Assembly: GCF_053078305.1 (NCBI RefSeq)
Contig: NZ_CP166879.1
Length of the DNA: 64,000 nucleotides
Reading direction: 5' to 3' (one strand)
The notes beneath the pieces were generated by a model. It saw nothing but the letters and a program-made list of their open reading frames with translations. It was not told where the DNA came from and searched no databases. This document shows, in pieces, positions 14,142 through 64,000 of this stretch (its first letter is position 1; each line of letters opens with the position of its first letter). A program made the translations under genes and the position numbers.

Positions 14142-14217
14142 TTGGTGGGTCGTGCAGGATTCGAACCTGCGACCAATTGATTAAAAGTCAACTGCTCTAC
14201 CAACTGAGCTAACGACC
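14142..14217 (-). tRNA. lysV: tRNA-Lys (anticodon UUU)
   Basis: Reverse complement reads GGGTCGTTAGCTCAGTTGGTAGAGCAGTTGACTTTTAATCAATTGGTCGCAGGTTCGAATCCTGCACGACCCACCA. Confidence 0.95.
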
Positions 14218-14221
14218 CGAA

Positions 14222-14297
14222 GTGGTGGGTGATGACGGGATCGAACCGCCGACCCCCTCCTTGTAAGGGAGGTGCTCTCCCAGCTGAGCTAATCACC
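14222..14297 (-). tRNA. valY: tRNA-Val (anticodon UAC)
   Basis: Reverse complement reads GGGTGATTAGCTCAGCTGGGAGAGCACCTCCCTTACAAGGAGGGGGTCGGCGGTTCGATCCCGTCATCACCCACCA. Confidence 0.95.
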
Positions 14298-14344
14298 CAC
14301 TTCGGTACTTCACATTTTTACAAGAAATTTAGCTGGTGAGAAAG

Positions 14345-14420
14345 TGGTGGGTGATGACGGGATCGAACCGCCGACCCCCTCCTTGTAAGGGAGGTGCTCT
14401 CCCAGCTGAGCTAATCACCC
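14345..14420 (-). tRNA. valX: tRNA-Val (anticodon UAC)
   Basis: Identical 76-nt tRNA-Val sequence, second copy. Confidence 0.95.
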
Positions 14421-14464
14421 ACTTCTCAATTTCTTGCTACACGGCGGAGACTACATAAAGTAGT

Positions 14465-14540
14465 TGGTGGGTGATGACGGGATCGAACCGCCGACCCCCT
14501 CCTTGTAAGGGAGGTGCTCTCCCAGCTGAGCTAATCACCC
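14465..14540 (-). tRNA. valU: tRNA-Val (anticodon UAC)
   Basis: Identical 76-nt tRNA-Val sequence, third copy; first gene of the operon on the minus strand. Confidence 0.95.
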
Positions 14541-14798: not shown

Positions 14799-16214
14799 AT
14801 GAAAATCAAAACTCGCTTCGCGCCAAGCCCAACAGGCTATCTGCACGTTGGCGGCGCGCGTACTGCTCTTTACTCCTGGCTTTTTGCACGTAACCACGGC
14901 GGTGAGTTCGTGCTGCGTATTGAAGACACCGATCTTGAGCGTTCCACGCCGGAAGCTATCGAAGCCATTATGGATGGCATGAACTGGCTGAGCCTGGAGT
15001 GGGATGAAGGTCCGTACTACCAGACCAAACGTTTTGATCGCTACAACGCAGTGATCGATCAGATGCTGGAGGAGGGCACTGCTTATAAATGCTATTGCTC
15101 TAAAGAGCGCCTGGAAGCGCTGCGCGAAGAACAAATGGCGAAAGGTGAGAAGCCGCGTTATGACGGTCGCTGCCGCCACAGTCATGAGCATCACGCTGAT
15201 GATGAGCCGTGTGTCGTACGTTTTGCTAACCCGCAGGAAGGTTCTGTTGTTTTTGACGATCAGATCCGTGGTCCGATCGAGTTCAGCAACCAGGAGCTGG
15301 ATGATCTGATTATCCGCCGTACCGATGGTTCCCCAACCTATAACTTCTGTGTGGTTGTCGATGACTGGGATATGGAAATCACCCACGTTATCCGTGGCGA
15401 AGACCATATCAACAACACGCCACGCCAGATCAACATTCTTAAAGCCCTGAAAGCGCCGGTACCGGTTTACGCGCACGTTTCTATGATCAACGGCGATGAC
15501 GGCAAAAAACTGTCCAAACGTCACGGGGCAGTCAGCGTAATGCAGTATCGTGATGACGGTTATTTGCCAGAAGCACTGCTGAACTATCTGGTGCGTCTGG
15601 GCTGGTCCCACGGCGATCAGGAAATCTTCACTCGTGAAGAGATGATCAAATACTTCACTTTGAATGCCGTCAGCAAATCTGCCAGTGCGTTCAACACCGA
15701 CAAGTTGCTGTGGCTGAACCATCACTACATTAATGCGCTGCCGCCGGAGTATGTTGCTACTCACTTACAGTGGCACATTGAGCAGGAAAATATCGATACC
15801 CGTAACGGCCCGCAGCTGGCTGATCTGGTGAAACTGCTGGGCGAACGCTGCAAGACGCTGAAAGAGATGGCACAGAGCTGCCGTTATTTCTACGAAGATT
15901 TTGCTGAGTTCGATGCCGATGCCGCGAAAAAACATCTGCGTCCGGTAGCGCGTCAGCCGCTGGAAGTAGTTCGTGACAAACTGGCCGCGATTACTGACTG
16001 GACAGCTGAAAACGTTCATCACGCTATTCAGGCGACGGCGGATGAGCTGGAAGTGGGTATGGGTAAAGTTGGTATGCCGCTGCGTGTCGCCGTAACCGGT
16101 GCGGGGCAGTCTCCGGCACTGGATGTTACCGTTCACGCAATCGGTAAGACACGTAGCATTGAGCGTATCAACAAAGCGCTGGCCTTTATTGCTGAACGCG
16201 AAAACCAGCAGTAA
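14799..16214 (+). CDS. gltX: glutamyl-tRNA synthetase
   Basis: 471 aa; class I aaRS HIGH motif ([13 protein letters not shown]) and KMSK (KLSKR); divergent from tRNA operon. Confidence 0.95.
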
Positions 16215-16232
16215 TTAGCGTGTAAAAAGATA

Positions 16233-16265
16233 AACGGCAGGAGATAATATCCTGCCGTTTTTTAT
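16233..16265. terminator. bidirectional rho-independent terminator between convergent gltX and yfeD
   Basis: AACGGCAGGagataatatCCTGCCGTTtttt. Confidence 0.7.
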
Positions 16266-16658
16266 TTATGCTGATTCGTCAATATCGAGACGGGCGAGGA
16301 AATTGCGAATTCCTTCACGTGACAAAAATTGCGCGACTTTTTCCTGCTCAATGTCTGTCATATTATCTATCGCGTTGATGATTTGTCGATACGCCGGGGC
16401 GCGTGCTCCAGGAGCGTATTCAGCAATTCTCTCTTCAGCTTCCATCAACATTGGTGTGTTATGGAACGCAGGCGTGTTCTGAATAAACTCGCAAACTTGC
16501 GTATCGACCAGAATAAGTCTGGCACGACCGCCTTTCACGCCGGGAAATTTTTCCGTTTTCCAGCCTTTTTCTCTGATCCAACGGTTAACAGTTTGTTTAG
16601 CCACACCGAGGCATTCAGCCAGTTCTTCGGTGGTCATTTTATTGCGTAATCTTTTCAT
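16266..16658 (-). CDS. yfeD: DUF1323-family putative DNA-binding protein YfeD
   Basis: 130 aa; paralogous to adjacent ORF (shared QTVNRWIREKGWKT / QTINKWVRKEGWTT HTH-like motif). Confidence 0.75.
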   Translation of the reverse strand: MKRLRNKMTTEELAECLGVAKQTVNRWIREKGWKTEKFPGVKGGRARLILVDTQVCEFIQNTPAFHNTPMLMEAEERIAEYAPGARAPAYRQIINAIDNMTDIEQEKVAQFLSREGIRNFLARLDIDESA

Positions 16659-16659
16659 A

Positions 16660-17019
16660 TTATTTGCTATCGCGAATCCCTAAGCGTTGTAACAATCCGA
16701 TAATCCCTTCCCGCAGAAGCAAGGATGTAAACTGTTTTTGTTCAACTGGCGTCATCTCTTTCGCCAGTGTCACCAGCAATACTTCAAGCGGCGCATCACC
16801 AGAAAGGGCAGGCGCTTCTCCCTGACCTTCTGGACGTTCAGCATTACGAATATATTCACGAACCTGTTCATTGACGTGAACCAGTCGGGCTTTGCCACCC
16901 TGGACGCCTGGTTTTGGTGACGTCGTCCAGCCTTCCTTGCGTACCCATTTATTAATGGTCTGGCGGCTATAGCCGGTCAGTCTGGCAAGTTCATCTGGCG
17001 TCATCCTCTCCTTGAACAT
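16660..17019 (-). CDS. yfeC: DUF1323-family putative DNA-binding protein YfeC
   Basis: 119 aa paralogue immediately upstream of yfeD, 1-nt spacing. Confidence 0.75.
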   Translation of the reverse strand: MFKERMTPDELARLTGYSRQTINKWVRKEGWTTSPKPGVQGGKARLVHVNEQVREYIRNAERPEGQGEAPALSGDAPLEVLLVTLAKEMTPVEQKQFTSLLLREGIIGLLQRLGIRDSK

Positions 17020-17239
17020 AACAATTCCCTGAATGTATGTGGGTCTATTAGTAGTTCATTTTATAGCACCACTTTACAGGAAACCGTGACATGAATAACT
17101 ACTGAATGCGAGCGGTTTTCCAAAATTGTTCATTTGCCTGATTTTTCAGCGATTGAAACTACACGTTGCAATTTGCCGTTGACACATTCGGGCGGAATTC
17201 ATATGATGCCGCCCGTCAACTCGACAAGCTTTACGTGAC

Positions 17240-17315
<76 letters not shown>

Positions 17316-17354
17316 AATTTTGCACCCAGCAAATTTGGTACGTAAACGCATCGT

Positions 17355-17430
<76 letters not shown>

Positions 17431-17469
17431 AATTTTGCACCCAGCAAATTTGGTACGTAAACGCATCGT

Positions 17470-17545
<76 letters not shown>

Positions 17546-59135: not shown

Positions 59136-60383
59136 ATGGCACTGAATATCCCATTCAGAAATGCGTACTATCGTTTTGCATCCAGTTACTCATTTCTCTT
59201 TTTTATTTCCTGGTCGCTGTGGTGGTCGTTATACGCTATTTGGCTGAAAGGACATCTAGGGTTGACAGGGACGGAATTAGGTACACTTTATTCGGTCAAC
59301 CAGTTTACCAGCATTCTATTTATGATGTTCTACGGCATCGTTCAGGATAAACTCGGTCTGAAGAAACCGCTCATCTGGTGTATGAGTTTTATCCTGATCT
59401 TGACCGGACCGTTTATGATTTACGTTTATGAACCGTTACTGCAAAGCAATTTTTCTGTAGGTTTAATTCTGGGGGCGCTCTTTTTTGGCCTGGGGTATCT
59501 GGCGGGATGCGGTTTGCTTGACAGCTTCACCGAAAAAATGGCGCGAAATTTTCATTTCGAATATGGAACAGCGCGCGCCTGGGGATCTTTTGGCTATGCT
59601 ATTGGCGCGTTCTTTGCCGGCATATTTTTTAGTATCAGTCCCCATATTAACTTCTGGTTGGTCTCGCTATTTGGCGCTGTATTTATGATGATCAACATGT
59701 GTTTTAAAGATAAGGATCACCAGTGCGTAGCGGCGGATGCGGGAGGGGTAAAAAAAGAGGATTTTATCGCAGTTTTCAAGGATCGAAACTTCTGGGTTTT
59801 CGTCATATTTATTGTTGGGACGTGGTCTTTCTATAACATTTTTGATCAACAACTTTTTCCTGTCTTTTATGCAGGTTTATTCGAATCACACGATGTAGGA
59901 ACGCGCCTGTATGGTTATCTCAACTCATTCCAGGTGGTACTCGAAGCGCTGTGCATGGCGATTATTCCGTTCTTTGTGAATCGGGTAGGGCCAAAAAATG
60001 CATTACTTATCGGTGTTGTGATTATGGCGTTGCGTATCCTTTCCTGCGCGCTGTTCGTTAACCCCTGGATTATTTCATTAGTGAAGCTGTTACATGCCAT
60101 TGAGGTTCCACTTTATGTCATATCCGTCTTCAAATACAGCGTGGCAAACTTTGATAAGCGCCTGTCGTCGACGATCTTTCTGATTGGTTTTCAAATTGCC
60201 AGTTCGCTTGGGATTGTGCTGCTTTCAACGCCGACTGGGATACTCTTTGACCACGCAGGCTACCAGACAGTTTTCTTCGCAATTTCGGGTATTGTCTGCC
60301 TGATGTTGCTATTTGGCATTTTCTTCCTGAGTAAAAAACGCGAGCAAATAGTTATGGAAACGCCTGTACCTTCAGCAATATAG
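59136..60383 (+). CDS. cscB: sucrose:H+ symporter (oligosaccharide:H+ symporter family, LacY-like)
   Basis: 415 aa 12-TM MFS ORF. Confidence 0.88.
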   Translation: MALNIPFRNAYYRFASSYSFLFFISWSLWWSLYAIWLKGHLGLTGTELGTLYSVNQFTSILFMMFYGIVQDKLGLKKPLIWCMSFILILTGPFMIYVYEPLLQSNFSVGLILGALFFGLGYLAGCGLLDSFTEKMARNFHFEYGTARAWGSFGYAIGAFFAGIFFSISPHINFWLVSLFGAVFMMINMCFKDKDHQCVAADAGGVKKEDFIAVFKDRNFWVFVIFIVGTWSFYNIFDQQLFPVFYAGLFESHDVGTRLYGYLNSFQVVLEALCMAIIPFFVNRVGPKNALLIGVVIMALRILSCALFVNPWIISLVKLLHAIEVPLYVISVFKYSVANFDKRLSSTIFLIGFQIASSLGIVLLSTPTGILFDHAGYQTVFFAISGIVCLMLLFGIFFLSKKREQIVMETPVPSAI

Positions 60384-60824
60384 ACGTAAACTTTTTCCGG
60401 TTGTTGTCGATATCTCCATATCCTTCAACCGGAAAATAATAATACTAAAATGCTTAGCCCTGCTAATAATCGCCTAATCCAAACACCTCATTCATGTTCT
60501 GGTACAGTCGCTCAAATGTACTCCGGATACACGGTTCGCTGATTTCCAGGACATTGTCGTCATTCAGCGACCTGTCGCGTGTATCACGGGCCTGCGAATT
60601 CATCAAGGAATGCATTGCGGAGTGAAGTATCGAGTCACGCCATATTTCGCTATCAGGATTCTGTGTGATGGTTACATCGCCCGGCCCAAGGCTGTTTAGT
60701 CATCAGCGCTTTCTGACAGTGCTGAGATTTCAACCTGTTGCAGTAAAAATGAGTAGATATAGGGCAAGTGTGCTGCCAAACCCATCGTTTACGGGATGAA
60801 GGTAGATTTGGTTTGAAGGGTATC

Positions 60825-60839
60825 TGGTGTCCCCTGCAG
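60825..60839 (-). other. prophage att core: copy of the 3' end of tRNA-Arg (argW-type)
   Basis: TGGTGTCCCCTGCAG is the reverse complement of ...CTGCAGGGGACACCA (3' acceptor end of tRNA-Arg-CCU as recalled); similarity stops after 15 nt, so this is a partial copy and not a tRNA gene. Confidence 0.5.
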
Positions 60840-60912
60840 ACATCTACTTGAAGCGGCAGGGGATTGATTGGAATGGTGTTTTTTAGATGTGAAAAATATT
60901 TTACCCGCTATT

Positions 60913-61113
60913 TTACCCATTGGCGCGGCTTAAGAGCTTATTTTTGAATTCACAATGGTCACGATATAACCATCTTGCTCGCCCGTGGATAACTTTGGCT
61001 TTAGGTAGGTCTCCGGACTTAATCCGGTCATAGATGAAGGTCTTACCGAAGCCAGTATCAGCCATGATGAATTTCAAATCAACCAGTGAATCAGGTTGTA
61101 GTTCGTGTTGCAT
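60913..61113 (-). CDS. torI: AlpA/TorI-type excisionase (recombination directionality factor)
   Basis: 66 aa MQHELQPDSLVDLKFIMADTGFGKTFIYDRIKSGDLPKAKVIHGRARW...; winged-helix Xis family; matches my recollection of TorI of the argW prophage. Confidence 0.6.
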   Translation of the reverse strand: MQHELQPDSLVDLKFIMADTGFGKTFIYDRIKSGDLPKAKVIHGRARWLYRDHCEFKNKLLSRANG

Positions 61114-61217
61114 GAGTGCTATCTCCGAATAGGGAATCGAACCTGCAAATCAGGCAATAAAAAAACCGCATTGATGCGGCGATGGTAGGTCTGGATATCT
61201 TGATAAATGAAAATGCC

Positions 61218-61496
61218 TCATCGAGTGTGAGGCGGTGTGATTCCATGGTTACCTCTGCTTTTTGAACGCATGTCACGTAACTTCTTAATGTGTTCTGCCG
61301 TTTCGATCTCTTCTGCTATCCGATCTGCATCAGCTTTATTCACAGGTTCAAAGTCATGATTAAAGCGGAACATGCTGGCGATACATGTTCTGCCTTTTCG
61401 GATGTAGTGAACTTTGTTGTGGTTAGAACGCAGGATTTTGCAGGGAGTGCCGTGGTGGTCGACGTACCAGGTGTTAGGCAAAATGATTCTGAACAT
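61218..61496 (-). CDS. hypothetical prophage protein
   Basis: 92 aa ORF co-oriented with the prophage early-left operon. Confidence 0.45.
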   Translation of the reverse strand: MFRIILPNTWYVDHHGTPCKILRSNHNKVHYIRKGRTCIASMFRFNHDFEPVNKADADRIAEEIETAEHIKKLRDMRSKSRGNHGITPPHTR

Positions 61497-61543
61497 TTTT
61501 ACACCTCAGTTGGACGATGTTGAAATTTGCTCCTTTGAGGTCA

Positions 61544-61762
61544 TCACAATCCCCATTGTTTGTTCTTAAGTTCGATCTCCTCCTGGCAACTTGCACAAGT
61601 CCGACAACCCTGAACGGCTAGGCGTCTTCGCTTATCTATGGGATCGCCACACTCACAACAATGAGTGGCAGATATAGCCTGGTGGTTCAGGCGGCGCATT
61701 TTTATTGCTGTGTTGCGCTGTAATTCTTCAATTTCTGATGCTGAATCAATGATGTCTGCCAT
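61544..61762 (-). CDS. DksA/TraR-family C4 zinc-finger protein (phage-encoded)
   Basis: 72 aa with CxxC-N17-CxxC (CCECGDPID...CRTCASC). Confidence 0.6.
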   Translation of the reverse strand: MADIIDSASEIEELQRNTAIKMRRLNHQAISATHCCECGDPIDKRRRLAVQGCRTCASCQEEIELKNKQWGL

Positions 61763-61860
61763 CTTTCATTAATCCCTGAATTGTTGGTTAATACGCTTGA
61801 GGGTGAATGCGAATAATAAAAAAGGAGCCTGTAGCTCCATGAAGATTTTGCTTTTCATGT

Positions 61861-62142
61861 TCACCGTTCCTTAAAGACGCCGTTTAACATACCGATTGCC
61901 AGACTTAAGTGAGTCGGTGTGAATCCCATCAGCGTTACCGTTTCGCGGTGCTTCTTCAGTACGCTACGGCAAATGTCATCGACGTTTTTATCCGGAAACT
62001 GCTGTCTGGCTTTTTTGATTTCAGAATTAGCCTGACGGGCAATACTGCGAAGGGCGTTTTCTTGCTGAGGTGTCATTGAACAAGTCCCATGTCGGCAAGC
62101 ATAAGCACACAGAATATGAAGCCCGCTGCCAGAAAAATGCAT
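61861..62142 (-). CDS. hypothetical prophage protein (start uncertain; internal Met would give about 71 aa)
   Basis: 93 aa ORF in the early-left region. Confidence 0.4.
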   Translation of the reverse strand: MHFSGSGLHILCAYACRHGTCSMTPQQENALRSIARQANSEIKKARQQFPDKNVDDICRSVLKKHRETVTLMGFTPTHLSLAIGMLNGVFKER

Positions 62143-62152
62143 TCAGTGGTTG

Positions 62153-62344
62153 TCATACCTGGTCTCTCTCATCTGCTTCTGCTTTCGCCACCATCATTTC
62201 CAGCTTTTGTGAAAGGGATGTGGCTAACGTATGAAATTCTTCGTCTGTTTCTGCTGGTATTGGCACAAACCTGACTCCAATTTGAGCAAGGCTATGTGCC
62301 ATCTCAATGCTCGTTCTTAACTCAACAGGAGATGCTTTGTGCAT
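62153..62344 (-). CDS. hypothetical small prophage protein
   Basis: 63 aa ORF immediately downstream of exo in the same operon orientation. Confidence 0.4.
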   Translation of the reverse strand: MHKASPVELRTSIEMAHSLAQIGVRFVPIPAETDEEFHTLATSLSQKLEMMVAKAEADERDQV

Positions 62345-62495
62345 ACAGCCCCTCGTTTATTATTTATCTCCTCAGCCAGCCGCTGGGCTTTCAGTGGATT
62401 TTGGATAACAGAAAGGCCGGGAAATACCCAGCCTCGCTTTGTAACGGAGTAGACGAAAGTGATCGCACCTACCCGGATATTATCGTGAGGATGCT

Positions 62496-63176
62496 TCATC
62501 GCCATTGCTCCCCAAATACAAAACCAATTTCAGCCAGTGCCTCGTCCATTTTTTCGATGAACTCCGGCACCATCTCGTCAAAACTCGCCATGTAATTTTC
62601 ATCCCGCTCAACCACGACATAATGCAGGCCTTCACGCTTCATGCGTGGGTCATAGTTGGCAAAGTACCAGGCATCTTTTCGCGTCACCCACATGCTGTAC
62701 TGCACCTGGGCCATGTAAGCCGACTTTATGGCCTCGAAACCACCGAGCCGGAACTTCATGAAATCCCGGGAGGTAAACGGGCATTTCAGCTCAAGACCAT
62801 TGCCGTCACTGCATAAACCATCGGGAGAGCAGGCGGTGCGCATACTTTCGTCGCGATAGATGATCGGGGATTCAGTAACATTCACGCCGGAAGTGAATTC
62901 AAACAGGGTTCTGGCGTCGTTCTCGTACTGTTTTCCCCAGGCCAGCGCCTTAGCATTAACTTCCGGAGCCACACCGGTGCAAACCTCAGCCAGCAGGGTG
63001 TGGAAGTAGGACATTTTCATGTCAGGCCATTTCTTTCCGGAGCGGGGTTTTGCTATCACGTTGTGAACTTCTGAAGCTGTGATGACGCCGAGCCGTAATT
63101 TGTGCCACGCATCATCCCCCTGCTCGACAGCTCTCACGTCGATCCCGGTACGCTGCAGGATAATGTCTGGTGTCAT
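62496..63176 (-). CDS. exo: lambda-type 5'-3' exonuclease (Red alpha)
   Basis: 226 aa [37 protein letters not shown]...; matches phage lambda Exo as recalled. Confidence 0.9.
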
Positions 63177-63958
63177 GCTGCCACCTTCTGCTCAGTGGCT
63201 TTTTGTTTCAGGAATCCAAGAGCTTTCACTGCTTCGGCCTGTGTCAGTTCTGACGATGCACGAATGTCGCGGCGAAATATCTGGGAACAGAGCGGCAATA
63301 AGTCGTCATCCCATGTTTTATCCAGGGCGATCAGCAGAGTGTTAATCTCCTGCATGGTTTCATCGTTAACCGGAGTGATGTCGCGTTCCGGCTGGCGTTC
63401 TGCAGTGTATGCGGTATTTTCGACAATGCGCTCGGCTTCATCCTTGTCATAGATACCAGCAAATCCGAAGGCCAGGCGGGCACACTGAATCATGGCTTTA
63501 TGCCGTAACATCCGTTTGGGATGCGACTGCCACGGGCCGGTGATTTCTCTGCCTTCGCGGGTTTTGAATGGTTCGCGTCGGCATTCATCCATCCACTCGG
63601 TAACGCAGATCGGATGATTACGGTCTTTGCGGTAAATCCGGCATGTACAGGATTCATTGTCCTGCTCAAAGTCCATGCCATCAAACTGCTGGTTTTCATT
63701 GATGATGCGGGACCAGCCATCAACGCCCACCACCGGAACGATGCCGTTCTGCTTATCAGGGAAGGCGTAAATTTCTTTCGTCCACGGATTAAGGCCGTAC
63801 TGGTTGGCGACGATCAACAATGCGATGAACTGCGCATCGCTGGCATCGCCTTTAAATGCTGTCTGGCGAAGAGTGGTGATCAGTTCCTGTGGGTCGACAG
63901 AATCCATGCCGACACGTTCAGCCAGCTTCCCTGCCAGCGTTGCGAGTGCTGTACTCAT
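63173..63958 (-). CDS. bet: lambda-type single-strand annealing protein (Red beta)
   Basis: 261 aa [35 protein letters not shown]...; start overlaps exo by 4 nt. Confidence 0.9.
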
Positions 63959-63963
63959 CCGTT

Positions 63964-64000
63964 TTATACCTCTGAATCAATATCAACCTGGTGGTGAGCA
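63964..64000 (-). CDS. gam: Gam-like RecBCD inhibitor, C-terminal end only (gene continues beyond window)
   Basis: Minus-strand frame ends ...AHHQVDIDSEV* 5 nt upstream of bet start, consistent with the lambda Gam C-terminus. Confidence 0.6.
   Translation of the reverse strand, partial: AHHQVDIDSEV

Follow-up and report, generated by a model that had tools for sequence, protein, structure and literature searches.

The closest described system is the element KplE1 (CPS-53) of Escherichia coli K-12, whose 16-nt core, CTGCAGGGGACACCAT, is duplicated and in which intS is the first and torI the last gene (PMC2951348, PMC3509656). The recombination module of this element is conserved in the phages HK620, Sf6 and CUS-3 as well as in many argW prophages, and excision was obtained in vitro with IntS, TorI and IHF on KplE1 and HK620 substrates (PMC2951348, PMC3509656). 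Work on the split int/xis geometry, the core of 15-16 nt and TorI dates back to 2004-2010, and the K-12 annotation lists a 15-nt pseudogene, pawZ, which is located 73 bp past torI and directly after the feature named 'cryptic prophage CPS-53'.

With the Int/Xis system of phage lambda this module shares a heterobivalent tyrosine integrase that uses arm-type and core-type sites together with IHF, and a small winged-helix directionality factor (PMC2951348). In lambda, xis and int lie next to each other to one side of attP, are co-transcribed and both stay at one prophage end, whereas in the IntS/TorI module attP is placed between the two genes, their transcription is uncoupled and the intS promoter overlaps attL (PMC2951348). 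On the host side, replacement of dsdC and most of dsdX by the csc genes beside the argW hotspot has already been described (PMC4366372).

The window, i.e. the whole stretch of 64,000 nucleotides analysed here, contains a junction of this kind next to cscB. We consider it almost certain that this junction is the attR of a lambda-like prophage inserted in argW by means of an IntS/TorI module of the KplE1/CPS-53 type, and by every feature testable within the window the locus is a member of this module class. An earlier note on the same DNA had proposed the int-distal end of a prophage as in the argW prophage of K-12; this proposal agrees with the identical layout of torI, the 73-bp spacer and the pawZ equivalent in both sequences, with argW and intS at the opposite end in K-12. 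The coordinates of all features are given in Table 1.

Table 1. Features of the prophage-host junction and of the adjoining prophage region in the window.
Feature	Position	Strand	Characteristics
Bacterial flank, right-hand side of attB	60384..60824		follows argW directly in unoccupied csc-type strains
50-aa ORF in the host flank, probable relic	60463..60615	minus	Pfam DUF4942, E=3.3e-6, model positions 18-62 of 190
attR core CTGCAGGGGACACCA	60825..60839	minus	last 15 nt of tRNA-Arg(CCU) argW; equivalent of K-12 pawZ (b4643)
P arm of attR, spacer of 73 bp from torI stop codon to core	60840..60912	minus	2 mismatches to K-12
Two direct GGGTAAAATA repeats, presumed arm-type sites	60897..60919	minus	12-bp period, overlap torI stop codon; HK620 'attP' repeat_region, 23/23
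torI, 66-aa recombination directionality factor (excisionase)	60913..61113	minus	66/66 identity to PDB 1Z4H
Conserved block upstream of torI	61120..61158	minus	identical to HK620 'phage integration' promoter pI block
cII site within the pI block, as annotated	61145..61157	minus	HK620 annotation
Terminator-like hairpin followed by T run	61165..61180	minus	inner edge of the conserved recombination module
Start of prophage body (early-left region), continuing past the window	61218..64000	minus	DUF4222 protein, TraR/DksA zinc-finger protein, small ORFs
lambda Exo	62496..63176	minus	prophage early-left region
Bet/RecT	63173..63958	minus	prophage early-left region

Core, breakpoint and host flank

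The core is identical in 15 of 15 positions to the argW 3′ end, for which the annotated gene of a related genome (L002, 15640..15714) served as reference; in modules of this type CTGCAGGGGACACCA may be extended by a T. It is present as a single copy in the whole window and stays the sole match if up to two mismatches are allowed; a second, degenerate att copy within the window was considered and not found at this threshold. The copy of the tRNA-Arg 3′ end in minus orientation claimed in the earlier note is thus found where it was placed, equals the argW end and is unique in the window. Immediately 5′ of the core the match to argW ends (gattC-CTGCAGG in the tRNA, gatgT-CTGCAGG in the window). 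Neither ARAGORN nor Rfam revealed a tRNA or a complete cloverleaf near the core (60800..60900), and a search of 60000..62000 against Rfam with a permissive threshold returned chance-level matches only, none of them to a tRNA or a known sRNA. The 15 nt are a partial tRNA copy, i.e. a stub, and not a functional tRNA-Arg gene.

Counted from the start of the core, the sixteenth base is G in the window and T in K-12, and the identity block comprises 15 nt in the one and 16 nt in the other. The block is shorter because the csc-type flank supplies G after the core. A block of 15 nt is expected for a flank of this type and is no real objection to the identification of the junction as attR.

Comparison with K-12 located the breakpoint. 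From the ATG of torI to the last base of the core, nine mismatches occur in 289 nt, seven of them in torI and two in the spacer. Beyond the last core base all similarity to K-12 is gone, as dsdC follows in K-12 and the csc flank in the window. A break of homology exactly at the end of the core is what a site-specific recombination junction predicts.

The gene cscB (59136..60383) ends 441 bp from the core. We constructed a synthetic empty site by joining argW and its upstream flank, both taken from strain NADC1036, to the reverse complement of 60384..60824. A search of 5426 complete E. coli genomes found this sequence uninterrupted in 1412 of them (100% coverage, about 98.5% identity), and the occupied junction consisting of flank, core and torI in 371. 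The empty site of PapM-32-1 has the order yfdC-argW-DUF4942 fragment-cscB-cscK-cscA-cscR-dsdX remnant-dsdA, which is the gene order of the window minus the prophage. As the 441 bp follow argW directly in 1412 genomes, they are host DNA and the prophage begins at 60840; their assignment to phage or island DNA was rejected for this reason. The breakpoint lies at the core and the flank beyond it is continuous with argW in unoccupied genomes.

The earlier observation that no integrase lies between the core and torI or towards cscB was confirmed, the 441-bp stretch holding just one 50-aa ORF with similarity to DUF4942. This ORF is a gene fragment, probably the relic of an older element beside argW, and the same fragment was found at the same place in prophage-free genomes. 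The exact CscB protein variant of the window was present on only two contigs in an index of 153 billion genes.

The boundary is hence fixed to the base, with phage DNA from 60840, the shared core at 60825..60839 and host DNA from 60824 downwards. The csc sucrose genes are not phage cargo. A boundary of this precision is useful for annotation and for the design of attB/attP excision assays.

Clusters of tRNA genes are located elsewhere in the window, namely three tandem tRNA-Ala(GGC) genes at 17240..17545 and a group of three tRNA-Val(UAC) genes with one tRNA-Lys gene at 14143..14540. K-12 presumably carries two Ala(GGC) copies at the same locus, which would make the window a copy-number difference.

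torI, the P arm and the sequence upstream

The 66-aa ORF is 100% identical over 66 aa to the 'Tor inhibition protein' of PDB entry 1Z4H, the TorI of K-12 (E=6.6e-43), which is the directionality factor of the KplE1/CPS-53-type module and is known besides to inhibit the response regulator TorR. At the nucleotide level the gene differs from torI of K-12 at seven positions, all of them silent. The name torI is also carried by the annotation of relatives, and RefSeq uses 'response regulator inhibitor TorI'. In Pfam, TorI gave i-Evalues of 0.16 for Phage_AlpA (PF05930) and 0.011 for HTH_17, both above the usual thresholds, and NCBIfam yielded no match for TorI, the DUF4222 protein or the 50-aa ORF of the flank. 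Of the designation 'AlpA/TorI-type excisionase' given in the earlier note, the TorI part is therefore correct, with 66 of 66 residues identical to 1Z4H, whereas the AlpA-type part, for which the Pfam match stays below significance, is a weakly supported label that would at best denote a remote resemblance.

The spacer between the core and the 66-aa ORF had been measured as 73 bp, and exactly this length is occupied by 60840..60912. K-12, HK620 and Sf6 have the same spacing, and the P arm is conserved together with its repeats at a fixed distance. The GGGTAAAATA repeats are presumably integrase arm-type sites; this assignment is based on the annotation in the HK620 record and on the PLoS Genetics paper. 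A TAAA motif is common to the arm-type sites of the IntS/TorI module (PMC2951348). For in vitro excision a 135-bp attR substrate has been used whose outer end is marked by the primer attR-IHF2 (PMC3509656), and this primer has an exact match in the window at 60917..60936.

Upstream of torI, the function of the pI block as a cII-dependent promoter is a prediction of the depositors of the HK620 and Sf6 sequences. Homology among the window, K-12 and HK620 begins at the terminator-like hairpin, and the recombination module is a mosaic cassette whose start is located about 45-65 nt upstream of torI. The sequence of the hairpin stem differs among the window, K-12 and HK620, and a hairpin with T run is kept in the window and in HK620.

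The argW T-arm recurs as an exact 16-nt copy, TTGCAGGTTCGATTCC, on the minus strand at 61133..61148, 19 nt upstream of the torI ATG. The block containing it is invariant in all four aligned sequences (window, K-12, HK620 and NADC1036), and within the window the 16-mer is unique apart from the genuine T-arm of tRNA-Lys, which shows two mismatches. In argW this sequence directly precedes the 15-nt core with an overlap of one base, and the last 30 nt of argW appear to be split in the phage by 293 bp comprising torI and the P arm. Its position coincides with the annotated pI promoter and cII site and with the start of 'boundary sequence 2' in HK620 and Sf6. One can speculate, although we hold this somewhat doubtful, that an ancestral attP contained a longer tRNA segment into which the torI/P-arm cassette was later inserted or shuffled, and that the relic was co-opted as a promoter or as a recombination sequence at the module boundary. 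The match may also be a coincidence of promoter sequence. Keyword searches of two papers returned no mention of an argW T-arm copy beside torI.

The prophage body and its far end

The early-left region of the prophage extends past the end of the window and was followed on contig JPQG01000003.1 (GCA_000736735.1), which shows 0 mismatches to the window over 14,865 overlapping bp. This contig, which carries a rare O-protein variant, was read 15.4 kb past the window, up to the window-equivalent position 79,375. The extension encodes a lambda-like prophage with Gam, Kil, a cI-like repressor, O, P, RusA, Q, lysis proteins, Bor, Nu1 and GpA. The part of the prophage read on JPQG01000003.1, which reaches at least 18.5 kb from the core and ends before the far end, contains no integrase. 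Exo, Nu1 and Bor occur on hundreds to tens of thousands of larger contigs.

Two observations concern the gene content of this extension. A gene pair encoding HipA_2 (PF20613) and DUF3037 (PF11236) proteins is located between the cI-like repressor and kil (L015, 15912..17485), about 1-2.6 kb past the end of the window, and is also present in two relatives (L017 and L018); the pair may represent a moron, a toxin-antitoxin system or defence cargo. Between Q and the holin gene of JPQG01000003.1 no gene is called (L016, 15893..17770), and at this interval the relative L017 has a gene for a 365-aa porin (16077..17174). The prophage of the window may thus carry a disrupted porin gene.

The far end was studied in genomes with related prophages. 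Strain NADC1036 has the same junction; at the far end of its prophage, which spans about 40 kb, intS (1158 bp) and the tRNA-Arg gene are both intact. The attL of this strain is ...gattcCTGCAGGGGACACCAtttat, the attR ...gatgcCTGCAGGGGACACCAgatac. An attP rebuilt from the P side of the window, the core and the P′ side of NADC1036 is collinear with the HK620 sequence from the start codon of torI to that of int; both are 450 nt long and differ by 16 mismatches, without gaps. Among complete genomes, GMM060 has the prophage most similar to that of the window (98.1% identity, 83% coverage of the first 19 kb), a lambda-type prophage of 48 kb that ends at an intact tRNA-Arg. Of the integrase gene beside argW, GMM060 retains a 261-bp N-terminal fragment, which adjoins an ISL3 transposase (L029, 28349..31150).

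A probe from the argW-proximal region of GMM060 was discarded as a link to the prophage of the window, since it represents unrelated ISL3 cargo. ISL3 and a KilA-N/P22AR gene form a two-gene unit that was seen in many unrelated chromosomal and phage contexts, and the P22AR-type gene seems to move as cargo of the IS. JPQG01000003.1 was absent among the contigs read that carry this unit.

The segment composed of torI, P arm and core was detected in 1404 and the segment argW-attL-intS in 1864 of the 5426 complete E. coli genomes. The position of argW at the far end of the prophage of the window is well supported by analogy with these relatives, and an intact intS is likely to be located there as well. 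In such prophages the presence of an integrase is the rule, its intactness not being guaranteed.

The module consists of the tyrosine integrase IntS, the directionality factor TorI and a core of 15-16 nt identical to the tRNA 3′ end, and the free phage carries these elements in the order torI, P arm, core, P′ arm and int. A crossover within the core against argW as attB splits torI from int, and the two genes end up at opposite prophage ends because the crossover point sits between them, a separation regarded in the literature as a defining trait of the module (PMC2951348, PMC3509656). By this mechanism the attL end receives the intact argW together with intS, and the attR end torI with the 15-nt tRNA stub, which in the window abuts the csc sucrose genes. 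For the prophage of the window, excision would depend on IntS, TorI and IHF acting on attL and attR, as is required according to the literature. P′ arm repeats, GGGTAAAAAGTGGATAAAATAATTTTACCC..., are predicted between intS and argW. The predicted products of excision are an attB in which argW is joined to ...GGGGACACCA with GATACCCTTCAAACC directly following, and an attP in which the core links the 3′ end of torI to the 5′ end of intS.

Other explanations of the junction were weighed against this mechanism. If the 15-mer were a chance match, the true boundary would lie elsewhere, for example at the cscB stop codon, and the 441 bp would belong to the phage. Fifteen nucleotides are indeed short, and at least one match with up to two mismatches arose in 12 of 100 shuffles; an exact match, however, was found in 0 of 100 dinucleotide-preserving shuffles, and the expectation for uniform composition is 1.2e-4 per window. 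Moreover, the homology to K-12 stops exactly where the 15-mer ends, K-12, HK620 and Sf6 have the same distance between core and torI as the window, and the 441 bp stand directly after argW in the 1412 prophage-free genomes. The breakpoint at the core and the empty site refute a chance match, to which we assign a negligible probability. It is also quite improbable that torI was kept mainly as a host regulator, namely as inhibitor of the response regulator TorR, and that its position at the prophage edge reflects domestication. The RefSeq name of the protein and the retention of torI within the 10-kb prophage remnant of K-12 would fit such a role, but HK620 and Sf6, which are active phages, encode a protein 100% identical to it (PMC3509656), conservation extends over the entire P arm including the arm repeats, and the gene is located on what looks like a full-length prophage. 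Besides, both roles are compatible with each other.

An explanation that leaves the boundary itself untouched assumes a prophage that is locked in, its far-end intS having been lost or truncated by an IS or a deletion, with torI and attR remaining as orphans. The integrase fragment next to the ISL3 transposase in GMM060 provides an example of such a state, and the numbers of torI ends and argW-intS ends differ across the 5426 genomes, which means that the two ends are not always paired. Against this, the ISL3 element with its KilA-N/P22AR cargo is a mobile unit and JPQG01000003.1 is not among its carriers read, intS of NADC1036 is intact, and in the part read the prophage of JPQG01000003.1 looks complete, having genes for repressor, replication, Q, lysis and terminase. 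A locked-in prophage is thus unlikely, yet it deserves to be kept in mind. The preferred reading is an attR whose prophage would have argW and intS at its far end in the same genome and would be able to excise.

Comparison with known systems

The recombination module of the window is closest to that of KplE1/CPS-53. TorI is 100% identical, and the two modules agree in the 15-nt core, the 73-bp spacer (apart from two mismatches), the arm repeats and the orientation; in K-12, argW and intS are located at the end opposite to torI, which is the layout proposed for the window. The only differences from K-12 are the prophage body and the host flank, the latter accounting for an identity block of 15 nt as against 16 nt in K-12. 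In K-12 a remnant of 10.2 kb without an immunity region is left, whereas in the window the module is attached to a lambda-like body with Exo/Bet, a cI-like repressor, O/P, Q and Nu1/GpA. The host flank leads to cscB in the window and to dsdC in K-12.

HK620 and Sf6, which are P22-like podoviruses of the genus Lederbergvirus, show the order torI (hkaC and gp18, respectively), 73 bp, attP core, about 160 bp and int. Their nucleotide identity to the window over torI and the P arm is 96-97%, and the annotated attP repeat and pI block are identical to those of the window. In contrast to the window, which contains the recombined attR of a long-tailed lambda-type prophage, they are free short-tailed phages with an unrecombined attP.

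With respect to the host, the locus corresponds to the variable argW-dsdCXA/csc island of E. coli, in which yfdC and argW are followed by a prophage or by nothing and then by cscBKAR, dsdX' and dsdA. The window differs from this island at the strain level only, its CscB variant being rare. The arrangement as a whole is already known, well studied and, as pawZ, annotated in E. coli K-12, and it adds no new biology. The prophage of the window is best described as the well-characterised argW/IntS/TorI integration cassette combined with a lambda-type body.
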